A stretch of 8,235 nt of DNA from a virus (taxonomy: Duplodnaviria; Heunggongvirae; Uroviricota; Caudoviricetes). The notes beneath the pieces are model-generated. The model worked only from the letters and a program-made list of their open reading frames with translations, had not been told where the DNA came from and made no database searches. The stretch lies in the IMG/VR virus record IMGVR_UViG_2778261058_000004, positions 1 through 8,235 of that record. One strand, given 5' to 3'. Shown one piece after another: positions 1 through 8,235 of the stretch; positions within the stretch are counted from its first letter, which is position 1; each line of letters opens with the position of its first letter. Both the position numbers and the translations under genes were made by a program.

Positions 1-277
1 ACCCGGTGTTATCTCGAGGAAAGGATAGCCTCGCCATACTTACCGCCGCGCCATTCCGCGGATTGCCACAACCGGAAGCGTACGGTCGAATTAAATTTAA
101 CGACAAGCCTCATAGGTGAAGGCCTTCGCCGTACGCTTTCGTGTTATGCCCTGACTTTTCAGGGATATATCCTTTCAGTAAACTGTCAGTGCCGGATTCT
201 TATCCGTGTCCGGCGCACGACAACACGCTGTCACGTGTGGTCTCCATTCTCAACCAGTAACCTCAATGGAGGATAAA

Positions 278-616
278 ATGCCAAACAAGCCAATACATCC
301 GCTTATTGAAAAACAGATTGAATGCCTGGTTAATCAACTCAGGCAATCAGGGTTATTAAAAACTCATTCAGAGCCAGGGCTCACAGAATCGGCATTCGAC
401 GATAAATTAAATAATGCGCTTTATAATGGCATCATTGATTACAATCGTGGTGCTGGTCGCCGTGGACTGCTGGCACCGTCCTGTAATTCCAGTCAATCCA
501 GAGCGGATAGTGTTCAGCATAAATATAGTTATACACATCCAGGTTGTATTTGCGGTCTGTCCTTAGCAGGTCGCAAATACACGCCGCAGCTTCCAGGGCA
601 GCAGCTTTGTTGCTGA
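278..616 (+). CDS. Questionable ORF (113 aa from ATG 278); its 3' half overlaps the convergent 232-aa gene antisense
   Basis: GGAGG at 268-272 sits 5 nt before ATG 278. The N-terminal 50 residues look protein-like (MPNKPIHPLIEKQIECLVNQLRQSGLLKTHSEPGLTESAFDDKLNNALYNG) and use common E. coli codons, but the C-terminal half is Cys/Ser/Gly/Pro/Arg-rich and overlaps 432..616 of the minus-strand gene. The track ORF starts at GTG 206. Confidence 0.25.
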   Translation: MPNKPIHPLIEKQIECLVNQLRQSGLLKTHSEPGLTESAFDDKLNNALYNGIIDYNRGAGRRGLLAPSCNSSQSRADSVQHKYSYTHPGCICGLSLAGRKYTPQLPGQQLCC

Positions 617-1130
617 ATAACCATGTGGCAACATTCCGCTCCAACGCTCCTGCGGGACCAGATACCACGAAGGAGCCGTTGGTGTTGCCATCAAATACAT
701 CCATTTCCAGATTTTTACGTAATGCCTGGTGAATTCTTGCCAGATATTCAGTCGGAATTTCGCCACGAATTCGGATAAGGTTGTCATAAACAAACATGTT
801 CCCCGCATACGCATATGGCGATTTTTCTTTCTTGCTTTTTAAACCAGCATCATGAGCAAGCTGATCAATTTCTTCTTCCGTTGGTTTCGTATTGATGTTT
901 TGCACTGTCGCTTCTGCAATTTTCTTTGCCGAATTCTCTTCGTAACCATTGTTCGGGACTGAGTTAGAATACAGTCCGGTAAAAGAATTGCGGACATTAT
1001 TTGATAAATTTCTGATGAACACCTTATCTACTAAGATCATTGGGTTCCGCGCCAGTTGCGAGCGAATCACATCAGCGGCCATTTCCTGTATTGGTAGTGG
1101 TAAATCTTTAAATTCCATCGTCAGCCTCAT
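432..1130 (-). CDS. Hypothetical protein, 232 aa, unrecognised family; second gene of the leftward early operon
   Basis: Long minus-strand ORF. Its ATG at 1130 overlaps the TGA stop of the upstream 50-aa gene (TGATG, translational coupling). A second in-frame ATG at 1118 has GAGG 7 nt upstream. No motif recognised by eye. Confidence 0.6.
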   Translation of the reverse strand: MRLTMEFKDLPLPIQEMAADVIRSQLARNPMILVDKVFIRNLSNNVRNSFTGLYSNSVPNNGYEENSAKKIAEATVQNINTKPTEEEIDQLAHDAGLKSKKEKSPYAYAGNMFVYDNLIRIRGEIPTEYLARIHQALRKNLEMDVFDGNTNGSFVVSGPAGALERNVATWLFSNKAAALEAAACICDLLRTDRKYNLDVYNYIYAEHYPLWIDWNYRTVPAVHGDQHHDCNQ

Positions 1131-1282
1131 CAGTCAGTGTTTCTTGCTAACCAGCGACGCGCGCCAGATTCGGTTTTAAACGTTTTGCTTTTGGTATACG
1201 TCATCGCGGTGAACGTGCCGTCCTGGTTTGGGAACACGCCGTATACCAGAGATTCGTTGTTGCCAAGATCGATAGTATCCAT
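1130..1282 (-). CDS. Small protein, 50 aa, first gene of the leftward operon; possibly DUF1391 (YdfA/YdaF-like), family assignment from memory only
   Basis: ATG at 1282 is preceded by GAGGT about 5 nt upstream (minus sense aaatGAGGTcaacATG). Product MDTIDLGNNESLVYGVFPNQDGTFTAMTYTKSKTFKTESGARRWLARNTD. The track ORF (68 aa from 1336) has no Shine-Dalgarno (SD) sequence. Being first after the operator/promoter matches the position of ydfA in the Qin dicB operon. Confidence 0.5.
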   Translation of the reverse strand: MDTIDLGNNESLVYGVFPNQDGTFTAMTYTKSKTFKTESGARRWLARNTD

Positions 1283-1459
1283 GTTGACCTCATTTCCCCT
1301 TAACGCCGGGGTAGCGGAACAAAAAACCTGCTGCATAGTTAAAGTTGAACCCTGCCGTCATGTTCTTACGCCTCGGGCTGGCTACTTAACCCCTGACCAC
1401 TGCCTGGTAACTCGAAGTATTGCCCTGCGTTCTGTGGGGCGGGGTGGGGTGGTGGAAAT

Positions 1460-1489
1460 AATCTACAATTAAAAACTGTTTTGTGTCAA
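1460..1489 (-). promoter_or_regulatory. Putative sigma70 promoter for the leftward operon (pL-like): -35 TTGACA, 18-bp spacer, -10 TAGATT
   Basis: Minus strand reads TTGACA (plus 1484-1489), 18 nt, TAGATT (plus 1460-1465). The -35 lies inside the palindromic operator-like site. The predicted leader to ATG 1282 is about 170 nt. Confidence 0.45.
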
Positions 1490-1501
1490 CAGTTTTTAAT
1501 T
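1467..1501. promoter_or_regulatory. Operator-like perfect inverted repeat (OL-like): AATTAAAAACTGTT-N7-AACAGTTTTTAATT, core AAAAACTGT-N9-ACAGTTTTT
   Basis: 14-bp perfect arms read directly from the sequence. The same 9-bp half-site and 9-bp spacing recur at 2506-2532 in the repressor/cro intergenic region. Confidence 0.5.
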
Positions 1502-1513
1502 GTTGGGGTGGGT

Positions 1514-1538
1514 AAAAAAACTCCCTCGAATGAGGGAG
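1514..1538 (-). terminator. Rho-independent terminator of the repressor-antitoxin-toxin operon
   Basis: Minus strand carries stem CTCCCTC, loop ATTC, stem GAGGGAG, then a run of 7 T, starting about 18 nt after the toxin stop codon at 1556-1558. Confidence 0.65.
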
Positions 1539-1555
1539 TATGAAAATTGTTCAGT

Positions 1556-1843
1556 TCAGATAGGGAAGGGAAATTGTCGGCGGGCATGCACAATATTTGC
1601 AATTTCAATGCTTGAAGCTGCTACTCGGTACAAAACGATATAATTAGGGTGAACCACAATTTCCCGCAAACCGGATACTCGATCACTTGGCGGATATAGA
1701 TATGGATGCTCGGAGAGGGCTAAAACAGACGTTTCAATACGTATTTTTAGTCTGCGTGCTGCAGGAATATTTTCCTTAGCAATATAGGCTACGATCTGAC
1801 GCAAATCATCGCGAGCAGATGGTAGCCATAAAATGGGTAACAT
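1556..1843 (-). CDS. parE2: ParE/RelE-superfamily toxin, 95 aa (ParE2-like)
   Basis: Size and sequence pattern typical of ParE toxins (…LYRV…IEIANIVHARR…). Its ATG overlaps the stop of the upstream 63-aa gene. Third gene of a repressor/antitoxin/toxin operon, as in the paaR2-paaA2-parE2 locus of E. coli O157 prophages (from memory). Confidence 0.8.
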   Translation of the reverse strand: MLPILWLPSARDDLRQIVAYIAKENIPAARRLKIRIETSVLALSEHPYLYPPSDRVSGLREIVVHPNYIVLYRVAASSIEIANIVHARRQFPFPI

Positions 1844-2034
1844 TACTCGCTCCTGTTAGTTACAGCAATTTGAGCAATAAGATTTTCTATTTCAGCCATT
1901 ACCTCGTCATGTGGAATTGAGGGACGAGGGTCTGCAAGGCTTGACGCCACTTTAGCGCGCAACCATTCGTTGTAACTGTTTTCTTGTTCGGTAGTTTCGA
2001 ATTCTGAAACTATCGGAGAAAGGGCTGTACTCAT
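1843..2034 (-). CDS. paaA2: Small antitoxin, 63 aa (PaaA2-like, no DNA-binding domain)
   Basis: GAGGAG sits about 6 nt before ATG 2034. Acidic 63-aa product MSTALSPIVSEFETTEQENSYNEWLRAKV… immediately upstream of, and coupled to, the ParE-like toxin. Confidence 0.7.
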   Translation of the reverse strand: MSTALSPIVSEFETTEQENSYNEWLRAKVASSLADPRPSIPHDEVMAEIENLIAQIAVTNRSE

Positions 2035-2061
2035 GGCATAACTCCTCTTCTTGTACAGTGG

Positions 2062-2463
2062 TCACGCCCGGCGGCTTTTTTGTGCCGCCAACCACCGGGC
2101 AATGGTTTCTTCCATTGATTTTTTCTTGTCTTTGATTTCTTGAAGCATTTTTTCTTGGTCTTCCTCTGGAAACGCACTAAAAGCCTGGAGCAGTTCGCGT
2201 TGGCGAGGACCAATTTTCATCGTGTCAGGGGTGAAAATTTGCTCCCCCTCTTCAGGAGGCAATAAAAACCAATGCAATGGATGCCCTGTAACCTCAACCA
2301 GTTTATCCAAACTTGAGGCTTTAGGTGTAGCCTTACCGCTGACCCATTGTTGAACAGTTTGTTGTGTCACACCAATTCTACGGGCCAGCTCAGCCTGGCT
2401 CCATCCAGTTTCCTGAAGAAGCTTGCTGATTCTGTACATAGATACTTCTAGAGCGTTCATCAT
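2062..2463 (-). CDS. paaR2: DicA/PaaR2-like HTH (XRE-family) repressor, 133 aa; likely the prophage cI-equivalent and TA operon regulator
   Basis: N-terminal helix-turn-helix (WSQAELARRIGVTQQTVQQWVSG) and a C-terminal helical segment (RQRELLQAFSAFPEEDQEKM) resembling DicA architecture, with no S24 peptidase domain. Divergent from the cro-like gene. The first ATG has no SD and lies 7 nt after a TAAAAT -10 (possibly leaderless); ATG 2439 is an alternative start. Confidence 0.8.
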   Translation of the reverse strand: MMNALEVSMYRISKLLQETGWSQAELARRIGVTQQTVQQWVSGKATPKASSLDKLVEVTGHPLHWFLLPPEEGEQIFTPDTMKIGPRQRELLQAFSAFPEEDQEKMLQEIKDKKKSMEETIARWLAAQKSRRA

Positions 2464-2500
2464 TATTCAATTTTACAGGTAAATACTGTTAAAAGCATCA

Positions 2501-2537
2501 CAATAAAAAACTGTTGATCGCGTACAGTTTTTTATTG
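2501..2537. promoter_or_regulatory. Operator-like perfect inverted repeat (OR-like): CAATAAAAAACTGT-N9-ACAGTTTTTTATTG
   Basis: 14-bp perfect arms between the divergent repressor and cro-like genes, sharing the AAAAACTGT-N9-ACAGTTTTT core with 1471-1497. An extra half-site-like ACTGTT lies at 2485-2490. Confidence 0.5.
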
Positions 2538-2572
2538 TAGGCTTTGCCTGTAGTTTTTTAGAGGAGGGCAAA

Positions 2573-2845
2573 ATGCTAGATAGCACTCGCGAAAAAATTA
2601 GGCAGAAATACACTCAAGCTGAAATAGGTCGTTATATGGGGGTCGCTCAACAGACTGTTTGGCAATGGTTTAGCTTTGGTGTTCCCCCAAAGCAGGTAAT
2701 TCCGTTATGTCAGCTAATGAAGTGGGAAGTTACCCCGCATGAAATTCGCCCTGATATTTATCCTAACCCAACCGACGGGCTGCCTTGTGGAAATAAGTGT
2801 ATGGCGAATGAATCTCTGGCGGTGAACAATGAAAATCACCCCTGA
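2573..2845 (+). CDS. ydaS: Cro/YdaS-like small HTH regulator, 90 aa
   Basis: Strong SD GAGGAGGG at 2561-2568. HTH-like segment (IGRYMGVAQQTVWQWFSFG). Divergent from the repressor and followed by the YdaT-like gene, as in Rac and CP-933P (from memory). Confidence 0.75.
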   Translation: MLDSTREKIRQKYTQAEIGRYMGVAQQTVWQWFSFGVPPKQVIPLCQLMKWEVTPHEIRPDIYPNPTDGLPCGNKCMANESLAVNNENHP

Positions 2846-3350
2846 ACAGGTTCGTGAGGCTCTGGATGCTTGGGTATGCAGACCAGGAATGACACAGGAA
2901 CAGGCGACGATATTAATCACAGAAGCCTTCTGGGCCCTGAAAGAACGCCCGAACATCGATGTTCAACGTGTCACGTTTGATGATGGCGCGGTTGAGCAAC
3001 GGGCGCTTGGCGTTAACCGGGTGAAGATATTCGAACGCTGGAAAGCGATCGACACCAGGGATAAGCGGGAAAAATTCACGGCGTTGATTCCGGCAATCAT
3101 GGAGGCTATCCGGATAAGTGATTTCAGGTTGTATTGTGAAATTACTGATGGAAAAAGCATTACGTACATGCTCGCCGGGTTAAATAAAGAATATGGCGAT
3201 GTGGTGGAGTCCGGTCTGCTTTTGGCAGATCCCGCTGTTGTGGAGCGCGAGACTGACGAGCTTATAGAAAAAGCTATTGCTTTCAAGCATGCGTATCGTC
3301 AGCAATATCAACAAAAAGCCGGATGGAATTATGAGTCTTCTTTTTGCTGA
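2829..3350 (+). CDS. ydaT: YdaT-like protein, 173 aa (CII-equivalent position)
   Basis: Overlaps the cro-like gene by 17 nt. Synteny cro-like / this gene / replication initiator; the KREKFTALIPAIMEAI segment recalls Rac YdaT. Assignment is from memory. Confidence 0.7.
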   Translation: MKITPEQVREALDAWVCRPGMTQEQATILITEAFWALKERPNIDVQRVTFDDGAVEQRALGVNRVKIFERWKAIDTRDKREKFTALIPAIMEAIRISDFRLYCEITDGKSITYMLAGLNKEYGDVVESGLLLADPAVVERETDELIEKAIAFKHAYRQQYQQKAGWNYESSFC

Positions 3351-4296
3351 ACGCCCACTGGTTATTAACACTCAGCTGGCGATGAAAATAGGTCTGAACG
3401 AAGCCATTGTGTTACAGCAGCTGCATTACTGGTTGAGAGATACCGGTTCCGGCATGGAATGTGATGGTGTTCGCTGGATTTATAACACAACAGAACAATG
3501 GCTGGAACAGTTCCCGTTCTGGTCAGAGTCAACGTTAAAACGCGCATTTGCAAGTCTGAAAACGCTGGGGCTTTTGCGTTGCGAAAAGCTCAACAAATCA
3601 AAGCGTGATATGACTAATTTTTACACGATTAATTACGAGAGCGAGCTTTTAGATGGTGGCAAAGTGAGCGAATCCATCAGGTCAAAATGCGCCGCTCCAT
3701 CAGGTCAAAATGACACGATGGAAGAGGCCAAAATGGCACGCTCCATTGGTTCAAAACGACCCAATGTCATCGGGTCAAAATGGCCTGATGATCTTACAGA
3801 GAATACAACAGAGATTACTACAGAGAATAAAAACACTTCTCGTCCGGAAGCTTCGCAACCGGACATGCAGACGGCTGAACAGGATTTTTTAAACCGACAT
3901 CCTGACGCGGTTGTGTTCAGTGCGAAAAAACGCCAGTGGGGCAGCCAGGAAGATTTGGCGTGTGCGCAGTGGATCTGGGGACGAATCGTGAGTCTTTACG
4001 AGCAGGCTGCCAGCGATGATGGCGAAATCATGCGACCGAAAGAACCAAACTGGACTGCATGGGCCAATGATGTGCGCACAATGCGGATGCTGGATGGCAG
4101 AACTCACAGACAAATTTGCGAAATGTTTGGTCGGGCACAGCGGGATCCATTCTGGGTAAAAAACGTCATGAGCCCGTCAAAGCTTCGCGAAAAATGGGAT
4201 GAGCTGGTTATTCGTCTGGGGCGTTCGCCTGTACAGCGTTGTGTAAATCATATTTCTGAACCGGACACCGAAATTCCGCCGGGATTCAGGGGGTAA
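3331..4296 (+). CDS. Replication initiator (lambda O-like / YdaU-like), about 321 aa from ATG 3331
   Basis: Position between the CII-like and DnaC-like genes, and an iteron array plus AT-rich tract inside the coding sequence. The start is uncertain: the track ORF begins at TTG 3277 and ATG 3289 is also in frame; 3331 was chosen for the MSLLFAERPLV N-terminus. Confidence 0.75.
   Translation: MSLLFAERPLVINTQLAMKIGLNEAIVLQQLHYWLRDTGSGMECDGVRWIYNTTEQWLEQFPFWSESTLKRAFASLKTLGLLRCEKLNKSKRDMTNFYTINYESELLDGGKVSESIRSKCAAPSGQNDTMEEAKMARSIGSKRPNVIGSKWPDDLTENTTEITTENKNTSRPEASQPDMQTAEQDFLNRHPDAVVFSAKKRQWGSQEDLACAQWIWGRIVSLYEQAASDDGEIMRPKEPNWTAWANDVRTMRMLDGRTHRQICEMFGRAQRDPFWVKNVMSPSKLREKWDELVIRLGRSPVQRCVNHISEPDTEIPPGFRG
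3673..3835. repeat. Putative origin of replication: 4-5 iterons (consensus near TCCATCAGGTCAAAATG) at 23-bp periodicity, then an AT-rich tract with ACAGAGA(A/T)TA repeats
   Basis: Copies at 3673-3689 and 3696-3712 are identical; degenerate copies at about 3719-3735, 3742-3758 and 3767-3783. The AT-rich segment at about 3790-3835 has three ACAGAGAATA/ACAGAGATTA repeats. Confidence 0.6.
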
Positions 4297-4302
4297 CGAA
4301 GC

Positions 4303-5049
4303 ATGAAAAATATTGCGACAGGCGGTGTTCTTGAACGCATCCGTAAGCTGGCTCCGCAGCATGTAACCGCGCCATACCGAACAGTGGACGAGTGGCGCGA
4401 GTGGCAACTTGCAGAAGGCCAGAAGCGTTGCGAGGAGATCAACCGCCAGAATCGTCAGTTGTGGGTGGAAAAAATTCTGAATCGCTCCGGCATCCAGCCG
4501 TTGCACCGCAAGTGCTCGTTTGCGAATTACCAGGTGCAGAATGACGGCCAGCGATACGCGTTGAGCCAGGCGAAATCCATCGCCGATGAACTGATGTCCG
4601 GATGCACAAATTTCGCATTCAGCGGAAAACCTGGTACCGGGAAAAACCACTTAGCGGCGGCTATCGGGAATCGCCTGCTGAAAGATGGCCAGACAGTGAT
4701 TGTGGTTACCGTGGCTGATGTTATGAGTGCTCTACACGCCAGCTATGACGACGGGCAATCAGGCGAAAAATTTTTGCGGGAACTGTGCGAAGTGGATCTG
4801 CTGGTTCTTGATGAAATTGGCATTCAGCGCGAGACGAAAAACGAGCAGGTGGTACTGCACCAGATTGTTGATCGCCGGACAGCGTCGATGCGCAGCGTGG
4901 GAATGTTGACAAACTTGAACTATGAGGCCATGAAAACGCTGCTCGGCGAGCGGATTATGGATCGCATGACCATGAACGGCGGGCGATGGGTGAGTTTTAA
5001 CTGGGAGAGCTGGCGTTCAAATGTCAGCTATTTGAGGGTTGTTAAGTAA
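4303..5049 (+). CDS. DnaC-like helicase loader (AAA+ ATPase; YdaV-like), 248 aa
   Basis: Walker A FSGKPGTGKNHLAAAIG and Walker B DLLVLDEIG. Similar to E. coli DnaC along the whole length (SGIQPLHRKCSFANY…, MLTNLNYEAMKTLLGERIMDRM…). Confidence 0.9.
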   Translation: MKNIATGGVLERIRKLAPQHVTAPYRTVDEWREWQLAEGQKRCEEINRQNRQLWVEKILNRSGIQPLHRKCSFANYQVQNDGQRYALSQAKSIADELMSGCTNFAFSGKPGTGKNHLAAAIGNRLLKDGQTVIVVTVADVMSALHASYDDGQSGEKFLRELCEVDLLVLDEIGIQRETKNEQVVLHQIVDRRTASMRSVGMLTNLNYEAMKTLLGERIMDRMTMNGGRWVSFNWESWRSNVSYLRVVK

Positions 5050-5063
5050 TTTCATGAGGGCTT

Positions 5064-5459
5064 ATGGCAAAACCTTTTACACCCGAACAGCGGGAAGAGC
5101 TGAAGGCACGAATTATCGGGTTGGTACGCAAAAATGGACGCATGACGATGTCGCAACTGGAGAGAGCGACGGGAGCTGGCTGGCATTCGGTCCGACGCAG
5201 CCTTGTGGATGTACTGGCTTGTGGTGATTTATACATGTCCGGGGAATACGGTGTTTTTGCATCAGAGCAGGCGTATCGTGAATGGCGTAAGACACCGGAG
5301 AAAACAACTGACCAGACACTGATTCGAAAGTTACCAGACGGAGAAATACGCCGCTACGACAGACACCTGAACATAATCTGTCGCGAGTGCCGGAAGAGTG
5401 AGGTTATGCAGCGAGTGTTGGCGTTTTATCAGGGTAATTTTCAGGAGGTGATGGCGTGA
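5064..5459 (+). CDS. Hypothetical phage protein, 131 aa, possible winged-helix DNA-binding fold
   Basis: ATG 5064 follows GAGGG. Protein-like composition. Its stop TGA at 5457-5459 overlaps GTG 5456 of the next gene. Confidence 0.6.
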   Translation: MAKPFTPEQREELKARIIGLVRKNGRMTMSQLERATGAGWHSVRRSLVDVLACGDLYMSGEYGVFASEQAYREWRKTPEKTTDQTLIRKLPDGEIRRYDRHLNIICRECRKSEVMQRVLAFYQGNFQEVMA

Positions 5460-5755
5460 GGGTGAGAGTTTATATTGCCGGTCCAATGACCGGGTATAAA
5501 AATTTCAACCGTGAGGCGTTCCACAATGCGGAAGAGGAACTGAAACGGGAAGGGCATACAGTCTTAAACCCGGCAGTACTTCCGGACGGGCTGACACAGC
5601 CACACTACATGGATATTTGCATGGCAATGATTCGTTGTGTGGATGCGATTTACATGCTGAAAGGCTGGCAGCGGTCGGCAGGCGCTAAGGCAGAGCTGGC
5701 GCTGGCGGAGAAGCTGGGGCATGCAGTTATTTTCCAGGAGGCAAACAGTGAATAA
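5456..5755 (+). CDS. DUF4406-like protein (nucleoside 2-deoxyribosyltransferase-like fold), 99 aa
   Basis: AGGAGG at 5443-5448 sits 7 nt before GTG 5456. N-terminal VYIAGPMTG…FN…F motif and conserved GW…S.GA.AE segment, as recalled for DUF4406. Confidence 0.65.
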   Translation: MRVRVYIAGPMTGYKNFNREAFHNAEEELKREGHTVLNPAVLPDGLTQPHYMDICMAMIRCVDAIYMLKGWQRSAGAKAELALAEKLGHAVIFQEANSE

Positions 5756-6428
5756 CCAATGGCGACCAGATGTTTGCCCTATAACCGGACGTGCATTTTT
5801 CATGTGGATTGAGCATCCGAAATTGGGCAATGTGCCGACGTATGGCGGCCCATTAGACAGTTACACCATTCCAACAAGGGACAGCGATGGTGAGTTTTCG
5901 TGTGAGCGTTACGATCATGATTTCGGTGGCTGGGTAGAAAGCGAATGTCTTGGGTTATATCTGATTGATGATAAAGAACAATGCAGAGTCTACGAACTGG
6001 AGGAACGCATTGCAGAGCTGGAGACTAATCTTGCTGCACTTGCGGCGGAGAATGCGGGGCTGAATAAATTTATCGCACAGAGTTGCTACGTGTTTGATGG
6101 CGAGCAGGATGAACTATCTGATGCGTATATCTGCGCAATAGACGGAAGGATGCCGCAAACCCCAGCCACCGATGCTTTCCTGGCTGAAGTACGTGCGGAA
6201 GCACGCAACGAGGGGATTAACTATACCGCCAGCCGTCTTGCTGCTGCGTTCAATCACGGATTTATCAATAAGTCTTTACGTGAAGTTTTCGACGTTACGC
6301 GCATGATTCTGTCAGCGAAAGAAGAGTTGGCTAATGAACCGCACCCGATTGATGGTCTGTCCGGTGAATATGCGGAGAAATCCCTTGAAGAATGGGCGGA
6401 ACAGATTCGCAAAGGAGACAACCAGTGA
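5748..6428 (+). CDS. Hypothetical phage protein, about 226 aa, with a central coiled-coil; Ea22-like is a guess only
   Basis: AGGAGG at 5736-5741 sits 6 nt before in-frame GTG 5748, which overlaps the end of the DUF4406 gene. Heptad-like segment ELEERIAELETNLAALAAENAGLNKF. The track start ATG 5721 is an alternative. Confidence 0.55.
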   Translation: MNNQWRPDVCPITGRAFFMWIEHPKLGNVPTYGGPLDSYTIPTRDSDGEFSCERYDHDFGGWVESECLGLYLIDDKEQCRVYELEERIAELETNLAALAAENAGLNKFIAQSCYVFDGEQDELSDAYICAIDGRMPQTPATDAFLAEVRAEARNEGINYTASRLAAAFNHGFINKSLREVFDVTRMILSAKEELANEPHPIDGLSGEYAEKSLEEWAEQIRKGDNQ

Positions 6429-6679
6429 GTGAGTCAAAATGCCAAATTAATGGCAACAAGATAGAACCGTGTACGGCTCTGGCAAAATCCCTTGAGCATG
6501 ATGCTGAATACACGACGCGAAAAGGTCTGCTGATATACAAAATCTGGAATGAGAGTTTAACTCGCGGCCCTGATTTGGTGATGTTGCGTTCCGGTGAATT
6601 TTCTAAATCACCAGTGCGGGTTTCATTTTGTCCGTTCTGTGGTGAAAGTCTGAAAACGTGGGAGAACAGAAATGAATGA
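6425..6679 (+). CDS. Hypothetical small protein, 84 aa, with Cys pairs (C-x11-C … CPFC), possible zinc ribbon
   Basis: GTG 6425 overlaps the upstream stop (GTGA), with AGGAG at 6413-6417. The track start ATG 6392 is in frame but lies inside the previous gene. Confidence 0.5.
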   Translation: MSESKCQINGNKIEPCTALAKSLEHDAEYTTRKGLLIYKIWNESLTRGPDLVMLRSGEFSKSPVRVSFCPFCGESLKTWENRNE

Positions 6680-6983
6680 AATTAAAGAAATACCAGTAGT
6701 ACGTGATGAATATGGCTGCTGGACGCATCCTGAATATGAAAAATTCTGTGATGGTAGAGAACATATTTCAACGGAAGAGTTTAACGCATGGATGGAGGAA
6801 AATAATCTTCAATGGACCATCAGAACTATGGATGAAGATGATTTTAATCTGGACGCAGATGGTCCCGATATTGCCGCTTGGGAACCAGAGCGACCAGAGG
6901 GCGAAGGCTGGTTTGTTGGCTCTATTCATGACACTGAAGATGGTCCTGTTTGTGTATGGCTGAGAAATAAGGCTGAAGCATAA
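6672..6983 (+). CDS. Hypothetical acidic protein, 103 aa
   Basis: ATG 6672 overlaps the previous stop (ATGAATGA), with GGGAG about 8 nt upstream. Strongly acidic (DEDDFNLDADGPDIAAWEPERPEGEGW). Confidence 0.6.
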   Translation: MNEIKEIPVVRDEYGCWTHPEYEKFCDGREHISTEEFNAWMEENNLQWTIRTMDEDDFNLDADGPDIAAWEPERPEGEGWFVGSIHDTEDGPVCVWLRNKAEA

Positions 6984-7112
6984 AGGCGATAAATCACCTG
7001 GCAACAAAACACTGAAAAATTTAAATCAGAAGTGAATTTTATTAAATCCTTAACCGGAGGGATTCCTGCACCCTCAGAACATCAGGAGGCCGCCTGAAAG
7101 GGCGGTAATGAA

Positions 7113-7295
7113 ATGCGAAAGTTCAGAATAATAATTGAAACAGGAATGGCTGGTGGAGATTTTGAGGATGTATTCGAAGTGGATGATGGCGCGACACCAG
7201 ATGAAATACAGGACGAAGCAAAAGAAATTTTCTTTAACTACTGCAATTACTCATATCACGAAATAAAAGATGAGGAGGAAGAACAACATGGCTGA
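7113..7295 (+). CDS. Small highly acidic protein, 60 aa
   Basis: ATG 7113 follows AAAGGG. About 20 Asp/Glu against about 5 Lys/Arg, with a C-terminal DEEEEQ. Overlaps the next gene by 8 nt. Confidence 0.5.
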   Translation: MRKFRIIIETGMAGGDFEDVFEVDDGATPDEIQDEAKEIFFNYCNYSYHEIKDEEEEQHG

Positions 7296-7464
7296 TTTTG
7301 GTTCAACTAAATATAACGCCAGTTTTGAAGAATGGCATGAACTGTTAATGGACTATGCAGAGTTACGCGGTGGAAGTGCTGCTGATGCTGAAGCATGGCG
7401 TGATGATTATGAAGCAGGGAAAACACCGGTCGAAGCATATTGTGATGAGTGGGGCGATGAATGA
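7288..7464 (+). CDS. Small acidic protein, 58 aa from ATG 7288
   Basis: GAGGAGG at 7272-7278 sits 9 nt before ATG 7288. The track start ATG 7270 has no SD. Product MADFGSTKYNASFEEWHELLMDYAELRGGSAADAEAWRDDYEAGKTPVEAYCDEWGDE. Confidence 0.5.
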   Translation: MADFGSTKYNASFEEWHELLMDYAELRGGSAADAEAWRDDYEAGKTPVEAYCDEWGDE

Positions 7465-7516
7465 GCGGGATTAATTATCAGGAAAGGTTTGAAAAATATC
7501 AAGAAGGGGCTACGGC

Positions 7517-7861
7517 ATGACGACTTTTACCAGAGAGCAGTTAATAGCTCACGCAGAGGAGACGATTGAGGCACAGAGACTGTGCATACCGGGTACAATC
7601 GACCATGACATCATCCGCACATATAAGATGGATATTGCTGTTCTGGAAATTGCACTGGCATCACTGGCAGCGGAGTCAGCCGGTAAATTGCATGAATACA
7701 AACCAGTGGGGTACCAGCGTCTGGTCGACGAGTTAACCATGCTGGTAAAGCAGTTAACCTGGCAACTGAGGAAAGTGAAGCCGGACTGTAAATTGCCGGA
7801 TAAGGCGATGGACTACCTGAAGCGGAACGAACTGATAAGCGCGGAGGATGTTTTGCGATGA
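7517..7861 (+). CDS. Hypothetical phage protein, 114 aa
   Basis: GAAGGGG at 7503-7509 sits 7 nt before ATG 7517. Protein-like, mostly helical-looking composition. Its stop overlaps the start of the next small ORF (ATGA). Confidence 0.6.
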
Positions 7862-7941
7862 CCCGGCCTGAAGCATTCACAACGGTAGGAATTGCGATGG
7901 CGGTGGCGCTGGTGGTGTATTCGATTTGCCGCTGGGGATAA
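7858..7941 (+). CDS. Putative small hydrophobic (single transmembrane) peptide, 27 aa
   Basis: ATG 7858 overlaps the upstream stop (ATGA), with GGAGG at 7843-7847. Product [27 protein letters not shown]. Too short for the 60-aa track. Confidence 0.35.
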
Positions 7942-7948
7942 AAACGGT

Positions 7949-7976
7949 TTGCGGGAAAAGGAGAGTTAAGTAGAAT
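7949..7976 (+). promoter_or_regulatory. Candidate promoter for the hok transcript: -35 TTGCGG, 16-bp spacer, -10 TAGAAT
   Basis: Hexamers read from the sequence. The predicted transcript start near 7984 would give a leader of about 170 nt before hok, the scale expected for hok-family mRNAs. Confidence 0.3.
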
Positions 7977-7990
7977 TGCTGCGGGTGCTT

Positions 7991-8031
7991 GAGGCTATCT
8001 GCCTCAGGCATGAACACCAAAAGGCAGATAG
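7991..8031 (+). promoter_or_regulatory. Structured hok leader: CTATCTGCC (7995-8003) pairs with GGCAGATAG (8023-8031), with nested GAGGC/GCCTC and TGCCT-c-AGGCA hairpins
   Basis: Inverted repeats seen directly. hok-family mRNAs are known for extensive 5' secondary structure that controls translation. Confidence 0.4.
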
Positions 8032-8095
8032 AGAAAAGCCCCAGTTAACATTACGCGTCCGGCAAGACGCTTAACATTAATCTGAGGCATTCTGT

Positions 8096-8155
8096 ATGCG
8101 ACACATAGAGATTAGCCTCTTACGGACCGAAAGGTCAAGGAGAAGCAGGCTATGA
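8096..8155 (+). CDS. Leader mini-ORF (19 codons, MRHIEISLLRTERSRRSRL) ending in ATGA overlap with the hok start; mok-like coupling element
   Basis: GAGG at 8084-8087 sits 8 nt before ATG 8096. Its stop TGA at 8153-8155 overlaps the hok ATG at 8152-8154. Confidence 0.3.
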   Translation: MRHIEISLLRTERSRRSRL

Positions 8156-8235
8156 AGCAGCAAAAGGCGATGTTAATCGTCCTGATCGTCATCTGTTTAA
8201 CCGTCATAGTGACGGCACTGGTAACGAGGAAAGAC
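8152..8235 (+). CDS. hok: Hok/Gef-family type I toxin, N-terminal 28 codons only (hokD/relF-like); continues beyond the window
   Basis: AAGGAG at 8137-8142 sits 9 nt before the ATG. Translation MKQQKAMLIVLIVICLTVIVTALVTRKD matches the transmembrane N-terminus of Hok/RelF proteins as recalled. Confidence 0.85.
   Translation, partial: MKQQKAMLIVLIVICLTVIVTALVTRKD

Follow-up and report, generated by a model that had tools for sequence, protein, structure and literature searches.

Escherichia coli prophage carries a ParE-type toxin-antitoxin pair in its predicted DicA-type immunity operon

Why would a lambdoid prophage place a toxin gene behind its immunity repressor? This question is raised by a stretch of 8,235 nucleotides of viral DNA (Caudoviricetes; IMG/VR record IMGVR_UViG_2778261058_000004, positions 1 to 8,235; hereafter the window), which carries on its minus strand, between positions 1513 and 2463, a regulator gene followed by an antitoxin gene and a gene for a ParE-family toxin. 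An earlier note on this DNA, made from the letters alone, had described a repressor/antitoxin/toxin module in the rexAB-like slot of an immunity region. In our reading, window 1460-3350 makes up the core of the immunity region in a lambdoid E. coli prophage of Qin/Rac-like type, and we think it likely that the three genes form an immunity operon whose toxin-antitoxin (TA) pair acts as an addiction device stabilising the immunity region. This reading is based on the gene identities, the operon anatomy, the operators and promoters recognised in the sequence, the co-occurrence of operator and regulator, and the variability of the slot that the TA pair occupies. Repression, bistability, Clp-dependent lability of the antitoxin, toxicity and addiction would be as in the homologous paaR2-paaA2-parE2 locus, which sits in the immunity region of prophage CP-933P in E. 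coli O157:H7 (Jurėnas et al., mBio 2021; PMC8630535) and was described earlier, for CP-933P / Sp12, by Hallez et al. 2010 (as cited in PMC8630535).

The three genes are tightly linked. The stop codon of the regulator gene and the ATG of the antitoxin gene are 27 nt apart, with a Shine-Dalgarno (SD) sequence, AAGAGGAG, placed 7 nt 5′ of the ATG, and a consensus scan predicts no promoter in this gap. The stop codon of the antitoxin gene and the start codon of the toxin gene share the motif TAATG (1841-1845), and an AGGAG ahead of the toxin start is located within the 3′ end of the antitoxin gene. The toxin stop is followed after 16 nt by an intrinsic terminator with an 8-bp G+C-rich stem (ACTCCCTC/GAGGGAGT), a 4-nt loop and seven U (1539 to 1513 on the minus strand). 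Its fold of -13.9 kcal/mol (z = -3.6) is equalled by one of 200 shuffled sequences, and the sole terminator-like match returned by the consensus scan inside the operon lies on the opposite (+) strand. The linkage proposed in the earlier note (an SD, a start/stop overlap and a clean intrinsic terminator) is thus borne out, as are its three proteins, a helix-turn-helix (HTH) repressor, a 63-amino-acid antitoxin and a 95-amino-acid ParE toxin, which match Pfam HTH_3, PaaA2 and ParE_toxin. Judged by their sequences, the three genes constitute a PaaR-PaaA-ParE type three-gene module within a prophage immunity operon.

The toxin is a ParE2-like member of the RelE/ParE superfamily: it matches Pfam ParE_toxin (PF05016, 6.6e-16), aligns over residues 1-93 with ParE2 of E. 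coli O157 (PDB 5cw7_B, E 1.2e-37) and is 67% identical to O157 ParE2 (CP-933P). The antitoxin has PaaA2 ('stability determinant', PF21217, 1.1e-21) as its sole Pfam match, scores 94 bits against NCBIfam NF050103 (RelB-family antitoxin; cut-off 50) and matches the PaaA2 structures (PDB 3zbe/5cw7; E 4.4e-22 for 3zbe, residues 3-54). It is 71% identical to O157 PaaA2 over 56 amino acids; both proteins have 63 residues, and their C-terminal tails differ. In canonical ParD-ParE type II TA systems the antitoxin carries a ribbon-helix-helix (RHH) domain and autoregulates, whereas the window antitoxin matches neither an RHH (ParD) nor an HTH DNA-binding domain in Pfam or NCBIfam, where PaaA2 and NF050103 are its only matches (residues 5-49).

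The regulator combines an N-terminal XRE-type HTH with a conserved C-terminal domain of ~50 amino acids (ELLQxFxAFPEEDQ...KKE.ME..ARWLAAQKxRRA). Its Pfam matches, HTH_3 (1.7e-13) and weakly Phage_CI_repr (9.7e-6), are to HTH families only and lie within residues 5-71; no match to the Peptidase_S24 autocleavage domain was found in Pfam, and RecA-mediated induction is therefore not expected. Searches against solved structures returned nothing beyond the HTH of the phage 434 repressor. The regulator is CI-like in position and role and is not a member of the lambda CI / LexA-type family. It aligns with K-12 DicA over both domains (28% identity, E 2e-12), and it scores 52.6 bits against the NCBIfam DicA subfamily NF007257, under the cut-off of 101 (residues 11-130 versus 9-131 of 135). 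It is thus a distant homologue of DicA and no DicA orthologue. With PaaR2 of CP-933P the alignment covers residues 37-133 only (42% identity, E 2e-19): the C-terminal domains are about 65% identical, and the first ~36 residues of the regulator, which include part of the HTH, cannot be aligned. A six-way alignment of regulators (A1) gives the same two-part picture, with the C-terminal ~50 residues conserved and the N-terminal HTH domains falling into at least three types. Together with the DicA match over both domains, this alignment argues for a PaaR/DicA-family two-domain repressor with a DNA-binding specificity of its own. The paaR2-paaA2-parE2 layout recognised in the earlier note consequently holds for the gene order, the toxin and the antitoxin; the match to PaaR2 is partial, and the HTH and the operators differ. 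We also considered the C-terminal domain as a TA-specific element, such as a sensor of the TA complex, and rejected this idea: the domain is equally conserved in relatives that have no TA genes and is recognisable in DicA.

Two perfect 39-bp palindromes flank the operon, one OR-like and one OL-like (Table 1), of which the sites singled out before at 2501-2537 and 1467-1501 are the cores. Both fit ACAATWAAAAACTGT-N9-ACAGTTTTTWATTGT, and the degenerate palindrome pattern is matched twice in the window versus 0.00 times expected (none in 200 shuffles). The OL palindrome contains the PL-like promoter, the sole consensus-grade promoter in the region, which is oriented toward a ydfA-like (DUF1391) gene. 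The OR palindrome spans the PR-like promoter from -35 to -10 and abuts the PRM-like -35 region. The two regions (1463-1503, reverse complement, and 2500-2540) are 80% alike, with TTGA and TAG included. The PR-like promoter precedes the ydaS SD AGAGGAGGG and is predicted to drive ydaS/ydaT and the replication genes. In the other direction, the regulator start has no SD, and the PRM-like -35 region (ATGCTT) is poor and adjoins the palindrome. The regulator mRNA is predicted to be leaderless and to come from a weak, possibly activation-dependent PRM-type promoter, because TAAAAT lies 6 nt from the ATG, an SD is missing, and the same geometry from -10 to ATG is found in four other immunity types, CP-933P among them. 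A possible extra half-site, AATACTGTT, is placed at 2482-2490, inside the PRM-like promoter. The regulator gene, divergent from ydaS/ydaT and with shared operators on the PR-like and PL-like promoters, does take the cI-equivalent position attributed to it in the earlier note.

The operators also travel with the regulator. We scanned IMG/VR with the regulator alignment, which gave 80 loci, and located the operators by tblastn and pattern matching. The OR palindrome is found 75 nt upstream of the regulator start in all 40 loci in which the regulator is at least 92% identical to that of the window, and most of these 40 also have the OL copy. The OR palindrome is missing from each of the other 40, in which regulator identity does not exceed 82%. 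The intergenic operators differ in every type, the four other immunity types carrying other repeats. This co-occurrence therefore supports the operator assignment and implies heteroimmunity. As to the binding partner, it would fit the repressor and the Cro-like protein alike; in CP-933P both bind the same region.

What lies between the repressor gene and OL/PL is variable. TA sequence occupies this slot in 67 of the 78 evaluable loci. Nine viral loci, with regulators 55-82% identical and the ydaS neighbour kept, have unrelated small open reading frames (ORFs) there in place of the TA pair. Unrelated small ORFs also stand in for the pair in an Arsenophonus locus with a regulator 49% identical, the only return of a contig scan with the single regulator sequence. 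The slot is empty in K-12 Qin, where dicA and ydfA are 166 nt apart. In two IMG/VR loci (L040 and L043), 351 bp that correspond to window 1618-1968 are cleanly deleted. This one event removes the C-terminal two-thirds of the antitoxin and the first ~75 codons of the toxin, joining the first ~22 antitoxin codons to the last ~20 toxin codons and leaving the regulator, both palindromes and the terminator intact. Such a joint loss would be expected if the antitoxin could not be lost alone. These comparisons show that the TA pair is an optional cargo of a DicA-type immunity operon.

The ORFs that fill the slot in relatives of the regulator (for instance L051 3553-3915, L052 3547-3951 and L073 3444-4201) match no Pfam or PADLOC family significantly; that of L051 reaches 22.6 bits with Pfam EACC1 (effector-associated constant component), for which the threshold is 23.6.

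How could such an operon work? In the mechanism that we propose, the repressor would be transcribed leftward from the weak PRM-like promoter, probably without a leader, on one transcript with antitoxin and toxin that ends at the terminator. In competition with the Cro-like YdaS, it would bind the two 39-bp operators and silence the PR-like promoter (ydaS/cro, ydaT/cII, replication) and the PL-like promoter (ydfA-like gene, early left), by which a bistable switch would be set up. The TA pair would travel on the immunity transcript in the way that rexAB does on that of cI, and would leave its transcriptional control to the phage switch, because the antitoxin has no DNA-binding domain. In a lysogen, the TAATG overlap would couple the production of the two TA proteins, and ParE would be wrapped and neutralised by the antitoxin. 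Once the immunity region is lost (by deletion, heteroimmune replacement or excision), or its transcription is stopped, the labile antitoxin would decay, and the stable ParE would then poison the cell, probably via topoisomerase interference and SOS induction.

The behaviour assumed here is that reported for CP-933P (PMC8630535). PaaR2 functions there as the analogue of CI. It binds between paaR2 and ydaS and represses both PR, strongly, and PL, and PRM is activated at low dose and repressed at high dose of the protein. YdaS is Cro-like, and YdaT is CII-like at the PRE promoter. The paaR2 mRNA is leaderless according to rapid amplification of cDNA 5′ ends (5′ RACE), which places its start at the ATG, and to N-terminal sequencing. 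The immunity region is bistable and heritable, the lability of PaaA2 is Clp-dependent, and the locus stabilises a mini-F plasmid (addiction). According to the authors' proposal, the TA pair protects the immunity region from being rearranged or replaced (PMC8630535), and the comparative data on the slot fit this idea.

Several points weigh against our reading. The PR-like and PRM-like promoters are both under the threshold of the consensus scan. OR consists here of one palindrome and the possible half-site at 2482-2490, compared to four inverted repeats in CP-933P. Since the window and CP-933P have neither the N-terminal DNA-binding domain nor the operators in common, regulatory details such as the number of sites and the activation of PRM may differ as well. 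In CP-933P itself, only loss of the locus was found to free ParE2, and no physiological condition (PMC8630535). The biological role is a hypothesis even for that model system.

Other explanations have to be weighed against an addiction device. The pair might instead exclude other phages in the manner of Rex, or by abortive infection: a superinfecting phage, for instance by shutting off host transcription or by degradation of the antitoxin, would trigger the TA pair, and the cell would be killed or arrested ahead of any multiplication of the invader. TA systems with labile antitoxins can serve as abortive-infection systems, the position and the expression logic are those of rexAB, with co-transcription with the repressor in lysogens, and the slot holds variable cargo as moron or defence slots do. 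The 'rexAB-like slot' of the earlier note is indeed apt for the position and for the variable cargo before OL/PL, but not for homology: no RexA or RexB relative was found via Pfam, PHROGs or PADLOC, in which the toxin and antitoxin are assigned only to ParE and PaaA2. Nor do toxin and antitoxin match any PADLOC defence model (the regulator matches generic HTH models only), and the CP-933P study reports no phage-defence phenotype for paaA2-parE2, with post-segregational killing as the only phenotype demonstrated (PMC8630535). We consider exclusion unlikely. It is more improbable still that the toxin is coupled to induction, such that the lytic switch upsets the TA balance, through derepression or through shut-off of PRM by YdaS, and freed ParE aids host takeover or punishes abortive induction. 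The wiring of the TA genes to a PRM-like promoter and to operators shared with the Cro-like protein would allow this, and YdaS of CP-933P represses PRM more strongly than PaaR2 (PMC8630535). However, both transcriptional states of CP-933P still transcribe paaA2-parE2 at appreciable levels, and according to an SOS reporter neither frees ParE2: the SOS-positive fractions are equal in the two states (0.88% versus 0.95%) and the same as in construct-free cells (PMC8630535). Moreover, the TA genes are co-transcribed and translationally coupled, and derepression would therefore raise the antitoxin along with the toxin. The suggestion of the earlier note that loss of the repressor on induction would derepress the toxin is weakened by the same results; the toxin should be released when the operon is lost or shut off and the labile antitoxin decays, and not by derepression.

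Scarcely credible, finally, is a 133-amino-acid protein that serves only as a dedicated regulator of the TA genes (a 'split antitoxin'), with the true prophage repressor encoded outside the 8.2-kb window. It is true that this protein has no Peptidase_S24 domain and that the window covers only part of the prophage; that one more HTH protein (HTH_3 + Peptidase_M78, 373 amino acids) is encoded in the nin region of L001, the closest complete prophage; and that a related E. coli locus, L002, has tandem regulators ahead of its TA genes. Yet the gene is at the cI/dicA position, divergent from cro-like and cII-like genes, and DicA, the immunity repressor of Qin, is a two-domain homologue, as PaaR2, which represses PR and PL of CP-933P, is a relative. 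What makes this explanation the weakest of all is that the palindromic operator recurs at the PL-like promoter 1 kb away and that full-length homologues (55-82% identical) hold the same position beside ydaS in loci which have no TA genes. An immunity operon with an addictive TA pair as its cargo is thus the reading that we retain.

The regulator gene itself is mosaic. DNA similarity to other immunity types breaks inside it, near window ~2192 for L009 and from 2127 for L008, approximately where the variable HTH domain gives way to the conserved C-terminal domain of ~50 amino acids. Since similarity starts or stops inside the gene, a mosaic joint lies within the repressor ORF. In L002 (E. coli GCA_014299135.1), the tandem regulators (4977-5840) are a PaaR2-like protein of 123 amino acids, whose gene adjoins ydaS, and a protein of 153 amino acids, 57% identical to the window regulator, whose extended C-terminus overlaps paaA. 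This tandem looks like a recombination scar, left when a block of regulator and TA genes landed behind another immunity repressor. On a bolder view, to which we give little credence, the conserved stretch that comprises the regulator's C-terminal domain, paaA, parE and the flank past the terminator (window ~1139-2192) would be a recombination and addiction cassette, shuffled in-frame between otherwise unrelated DicA-type DNA-binding domains. If this were true, the TA pair would decide which exchanges of immunity remain viable and would thereby shape the evolution of heteroimmunity in enterobacterial lambdoid prophages.

Three more observations concern the operator region. The core of both operators is CTGT-N9-ACAG (window 1476-1492 and 2511-2527), one base longer than the LexA box, which is CTGT-N8-ACAG. 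More speculatively, the operator cores might permit cross-talk with LexA and so give an SOS input to a repressor without an autocleavage domain. Between the PR-like -10 and the ydaS SD, a terminator-like hairpin of 9 pairs (window 2534-2554, + strand) is followed by TTTTT (T-run to 2559); chance could account for it, or it could serve as an attenuator or a further operator. A search of the window for the published YdaT site, TTGATTN6AATCAA, gave no match, and no PRE-like promoter was placed there; any PRE-type promoter here must therefore use a different site.

Table 1. Features of the immunity region, in coordinates of the window
Feature	Position	Strand	Evidence
Regulator (predicted immunity repressor, PaaR/DicA-type), 133 aa	2062-2463	-	ORF list
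PaaA-type antitoxin, 63 aa	1843-2034	-	ORF list, Pfam
ParE-family toxin, 95 aa	1556-1843	-	ORF list, Pfam
Antitoxin Shine-Dalgarno AAGAGGAG	2042-2049	-	Direct sequence reading
Intrinsic terminator of the repressor-antitoxin-toxin transcript, lambda t-imm analogue	1513-1539	-	Consensus scan, RNA fold
OR-like operator, perfect 39-bp palindrome (15-nt arms, 9-nt spacer)	2500-2538	.	Palindrome search
OL-like operator, perfect 39-bp palindrome (16-nt arms, 7-nt spacer)	1465-1503	.	Palindrome search
PRM-like -10 hexamer TAAAAT, 6 nt before regulator ATG	2470-2475	-	Sequence reading
PR-like promoter TTGATC-18 nt-TAGGCT	2514-2543	+	Inferred: same register and architecture as PL-like site
PL-like promoter TTGACA-18 nt-TAGATT	1460-1489	-	Promoter scan, 10/12 matches
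YdaS-family HTH protein, putative Cro analogue	2573-2845	+	Pfam YdaS_toxin 8e-10; phrog_35 3.4e-22
YdaT-family protein, putative CII analogue, 173 aa	2829-3350	+	Pfam YdaT_toxin 1.5e-5; phrog_163 'CII-like transcriptional activator' 1.7e-41
DUF1391 (ydfA-like), first gene of PL-like operon	1130-1336	-	Pfam DUF1391 1.1e-28

The neighbouring genes are those of a lambdoid prophage (Table 1). To the right of the operon, the YdaS-like protein would act as the Cro analogue, its gene overlapping ydaT by 17 nt, and beyond ydaT follow an O-like gene and a gene for a DnaC/IstB-like ATPase. The latter is intact in the window (4303-5049, 248 amino acids) and is annotated as frameshifted in L001 (22904-23649). 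On the left, the ydfA-like gene lies beyond the terminator and the OL palindrome, in the position that ydfA has after dicA in K-12 Qin. The nearest complete relative, prophage L001, is 99% identical over window 1140-5024 and adjoins rspB; integrase, excisionase, exonuclease and dicB genes are found on its left side, and replication, Q-antiterminator, lysis and terminase genes on its right side. No second repressor was seen at an immunity-type position in L001. Its 373-amino-acid HTH_3 + Peptidase_M78 (ImmA/IrrE-like) protein is encoded at 28183-29304, in the nin region, and an ORF6N-domain protein is encoded after the Q gene; either might conceivably be an alternative regulator or a component of antirepressor type. 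A further TA locus, of type I and hokD-like, lies at the right end of the window, where 7983-8154 (+) matches Rfam sok/hok RF01794 with 106 bits (gathering score 59); the corresponding region of L001 is annotated hokD.

The core of the locus (window 1400-2700, 1.3 kb) is present over at least 80% of its length in 509 of 5,426 complete E. coli genomes (~9%). The whole window is found in no complete E. coli genome, and the best covers 75% of it, which is typical lambdoid mosaicism. In most of the IMG/VR loci L011-L049, whose regulators are 98-100% identical to that of the window, the YdaS-like protein is ~83% identical to the window's. Because this divergence is seen at near-identical regulators, another mosaic joint lies at or just right of OR/PR.

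Based on these comparisons, the locus is real but ordinary, being a heteroimmune sequence variant of the published CP-933P system. Its architecture, its cI-equivalent position and its addiction behaviour were already published for CP-933P (PMC8630535), so that the TA regulator in the cI position, taken as the notable point in the earlier note, is not new. The locus is nonetheless of use. As a common and clean variant with one perfect 39-bp palindrome each at PR and PL, it would be a neater system than CP-933P in which to study how operators are occupied and looped. It also adds comparative data: the TA pair is absent in Qin, swapped for other ORFs in relatives, and lost only via deletions that strike both genes. 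Lastly, the labels given by the Prokaryotic Genome Annotation Pipeline ('RelB family antitoxin', 'toxin YdaT', 'helix-turn-helix domain-containing protein') mislead, as the locus is a prophage switch; the toxin gene is routinely labelled RelE/ParE by the same pipeline.

How, then, does the locus relate to known systems? As the reference for CP-933P we used L008 of E. coli O157:H7 EC4115, which was reached through the TA genes; its protein upstream of paaA2 has 123 amino acids and starts with MQKKE, the N-terminus determined experimentally for PaaR2 (PMC8630535). Structures for this system are available as PDB 3zbe, 5cw7, 5cze and 5czf. A route by DNA similarity to the PaaR2-like ORF of L002 was abandoned, as it led to only 19 genomes and no O157:H7 strain. 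The two loci share the order of a regulator gene, a gene for a 63-amino-acid PaaA antitoxin and a ParE toxin gene, with the same coupling, at a lambdoid immunity-region position divergent from ydaS/ydaT. Both have a second operator set beyond the toxin gene, at a PL-type promoter (in CP-933P, PL with its OL operators is on the far side of the TA genes; PMC8630535), a -10 hexamer 6 nt from a regulator ATG without SD, and a regulator without an S24 peptidase domain. They differ in the length of the regulator (123 amino acids compared to 133 in the window) and in its N-terminal DNA-binding domain, and the operators of CP-933P are 18-bp repeats with the half-site GTTTAGTAA whereas those of the window are two 39-bp palindromes. 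The YdaS proteins are essentially unrelated in sequence, and YdaT of CP-933P has 141 amino acids compared to 173 in the window, with 33% identity. Because the regulator N-terminal domain, the operators, YdaS and YdaT all differ, the window is predicted to have a different immunity specificity from CP-933P.

The immunity types L004 and L009 have TA genes closer to those of the window than CP-933P has (antitoxin 81-86% and toxin 85% identical), and the same flanks, with ydaS/ydaT on one side and DUF1391, dicB and exonuclease genes on the other. Along its whole length, the regulator of the L004 type shows 67% identity, whereas that of L009 (166 amino acids) has only the C-terminal 52 residues in common with the window regulator (65%). 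L009 is a second locus in strain AUSMDU00014361 (5.57 Mb), a genome that the CP-933P-type TA query matches as well, and it may be the homologue in CP-933M to which PMC8630535 refers. An equation of the L004-type module with the O157 CP-933M paaR1 system is unsupported: 17 genomes cover at least 80% of the query, and among those listed there is no O157:H7 strain.

Compared with K-12 Qin, the window has the same plan: a DicA-type two-domain regulator, a divergent cro-like gene, and OL/PL followed by ydfA (DUF1391), which in Qin precedes ydfB, ydfC and dicB. Qin adjoins rspB, as L001 does, and its order is dicC leftward and dicA rightward, then ydfA-ydfB-ydfC-dicF-dicB. Unlike Qin, the window has the TA pair and the terminator inserted between the repressor gene and OL/PL. 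With lambda cI-rexA-rexB it shares a leftward PRM transcript of repressor and lysogen-expressed cargo, a terminator just before OL/PL, and a divergent PR with cro and cII; the cI mRNA is leaderless (PMC8630535), as is predicted for that of the window regulator. The window differs from lambda in that it has no sequence homology to CI, RexA or RexB, and in that its cargo is a type II TA pair and not an exclusion system.

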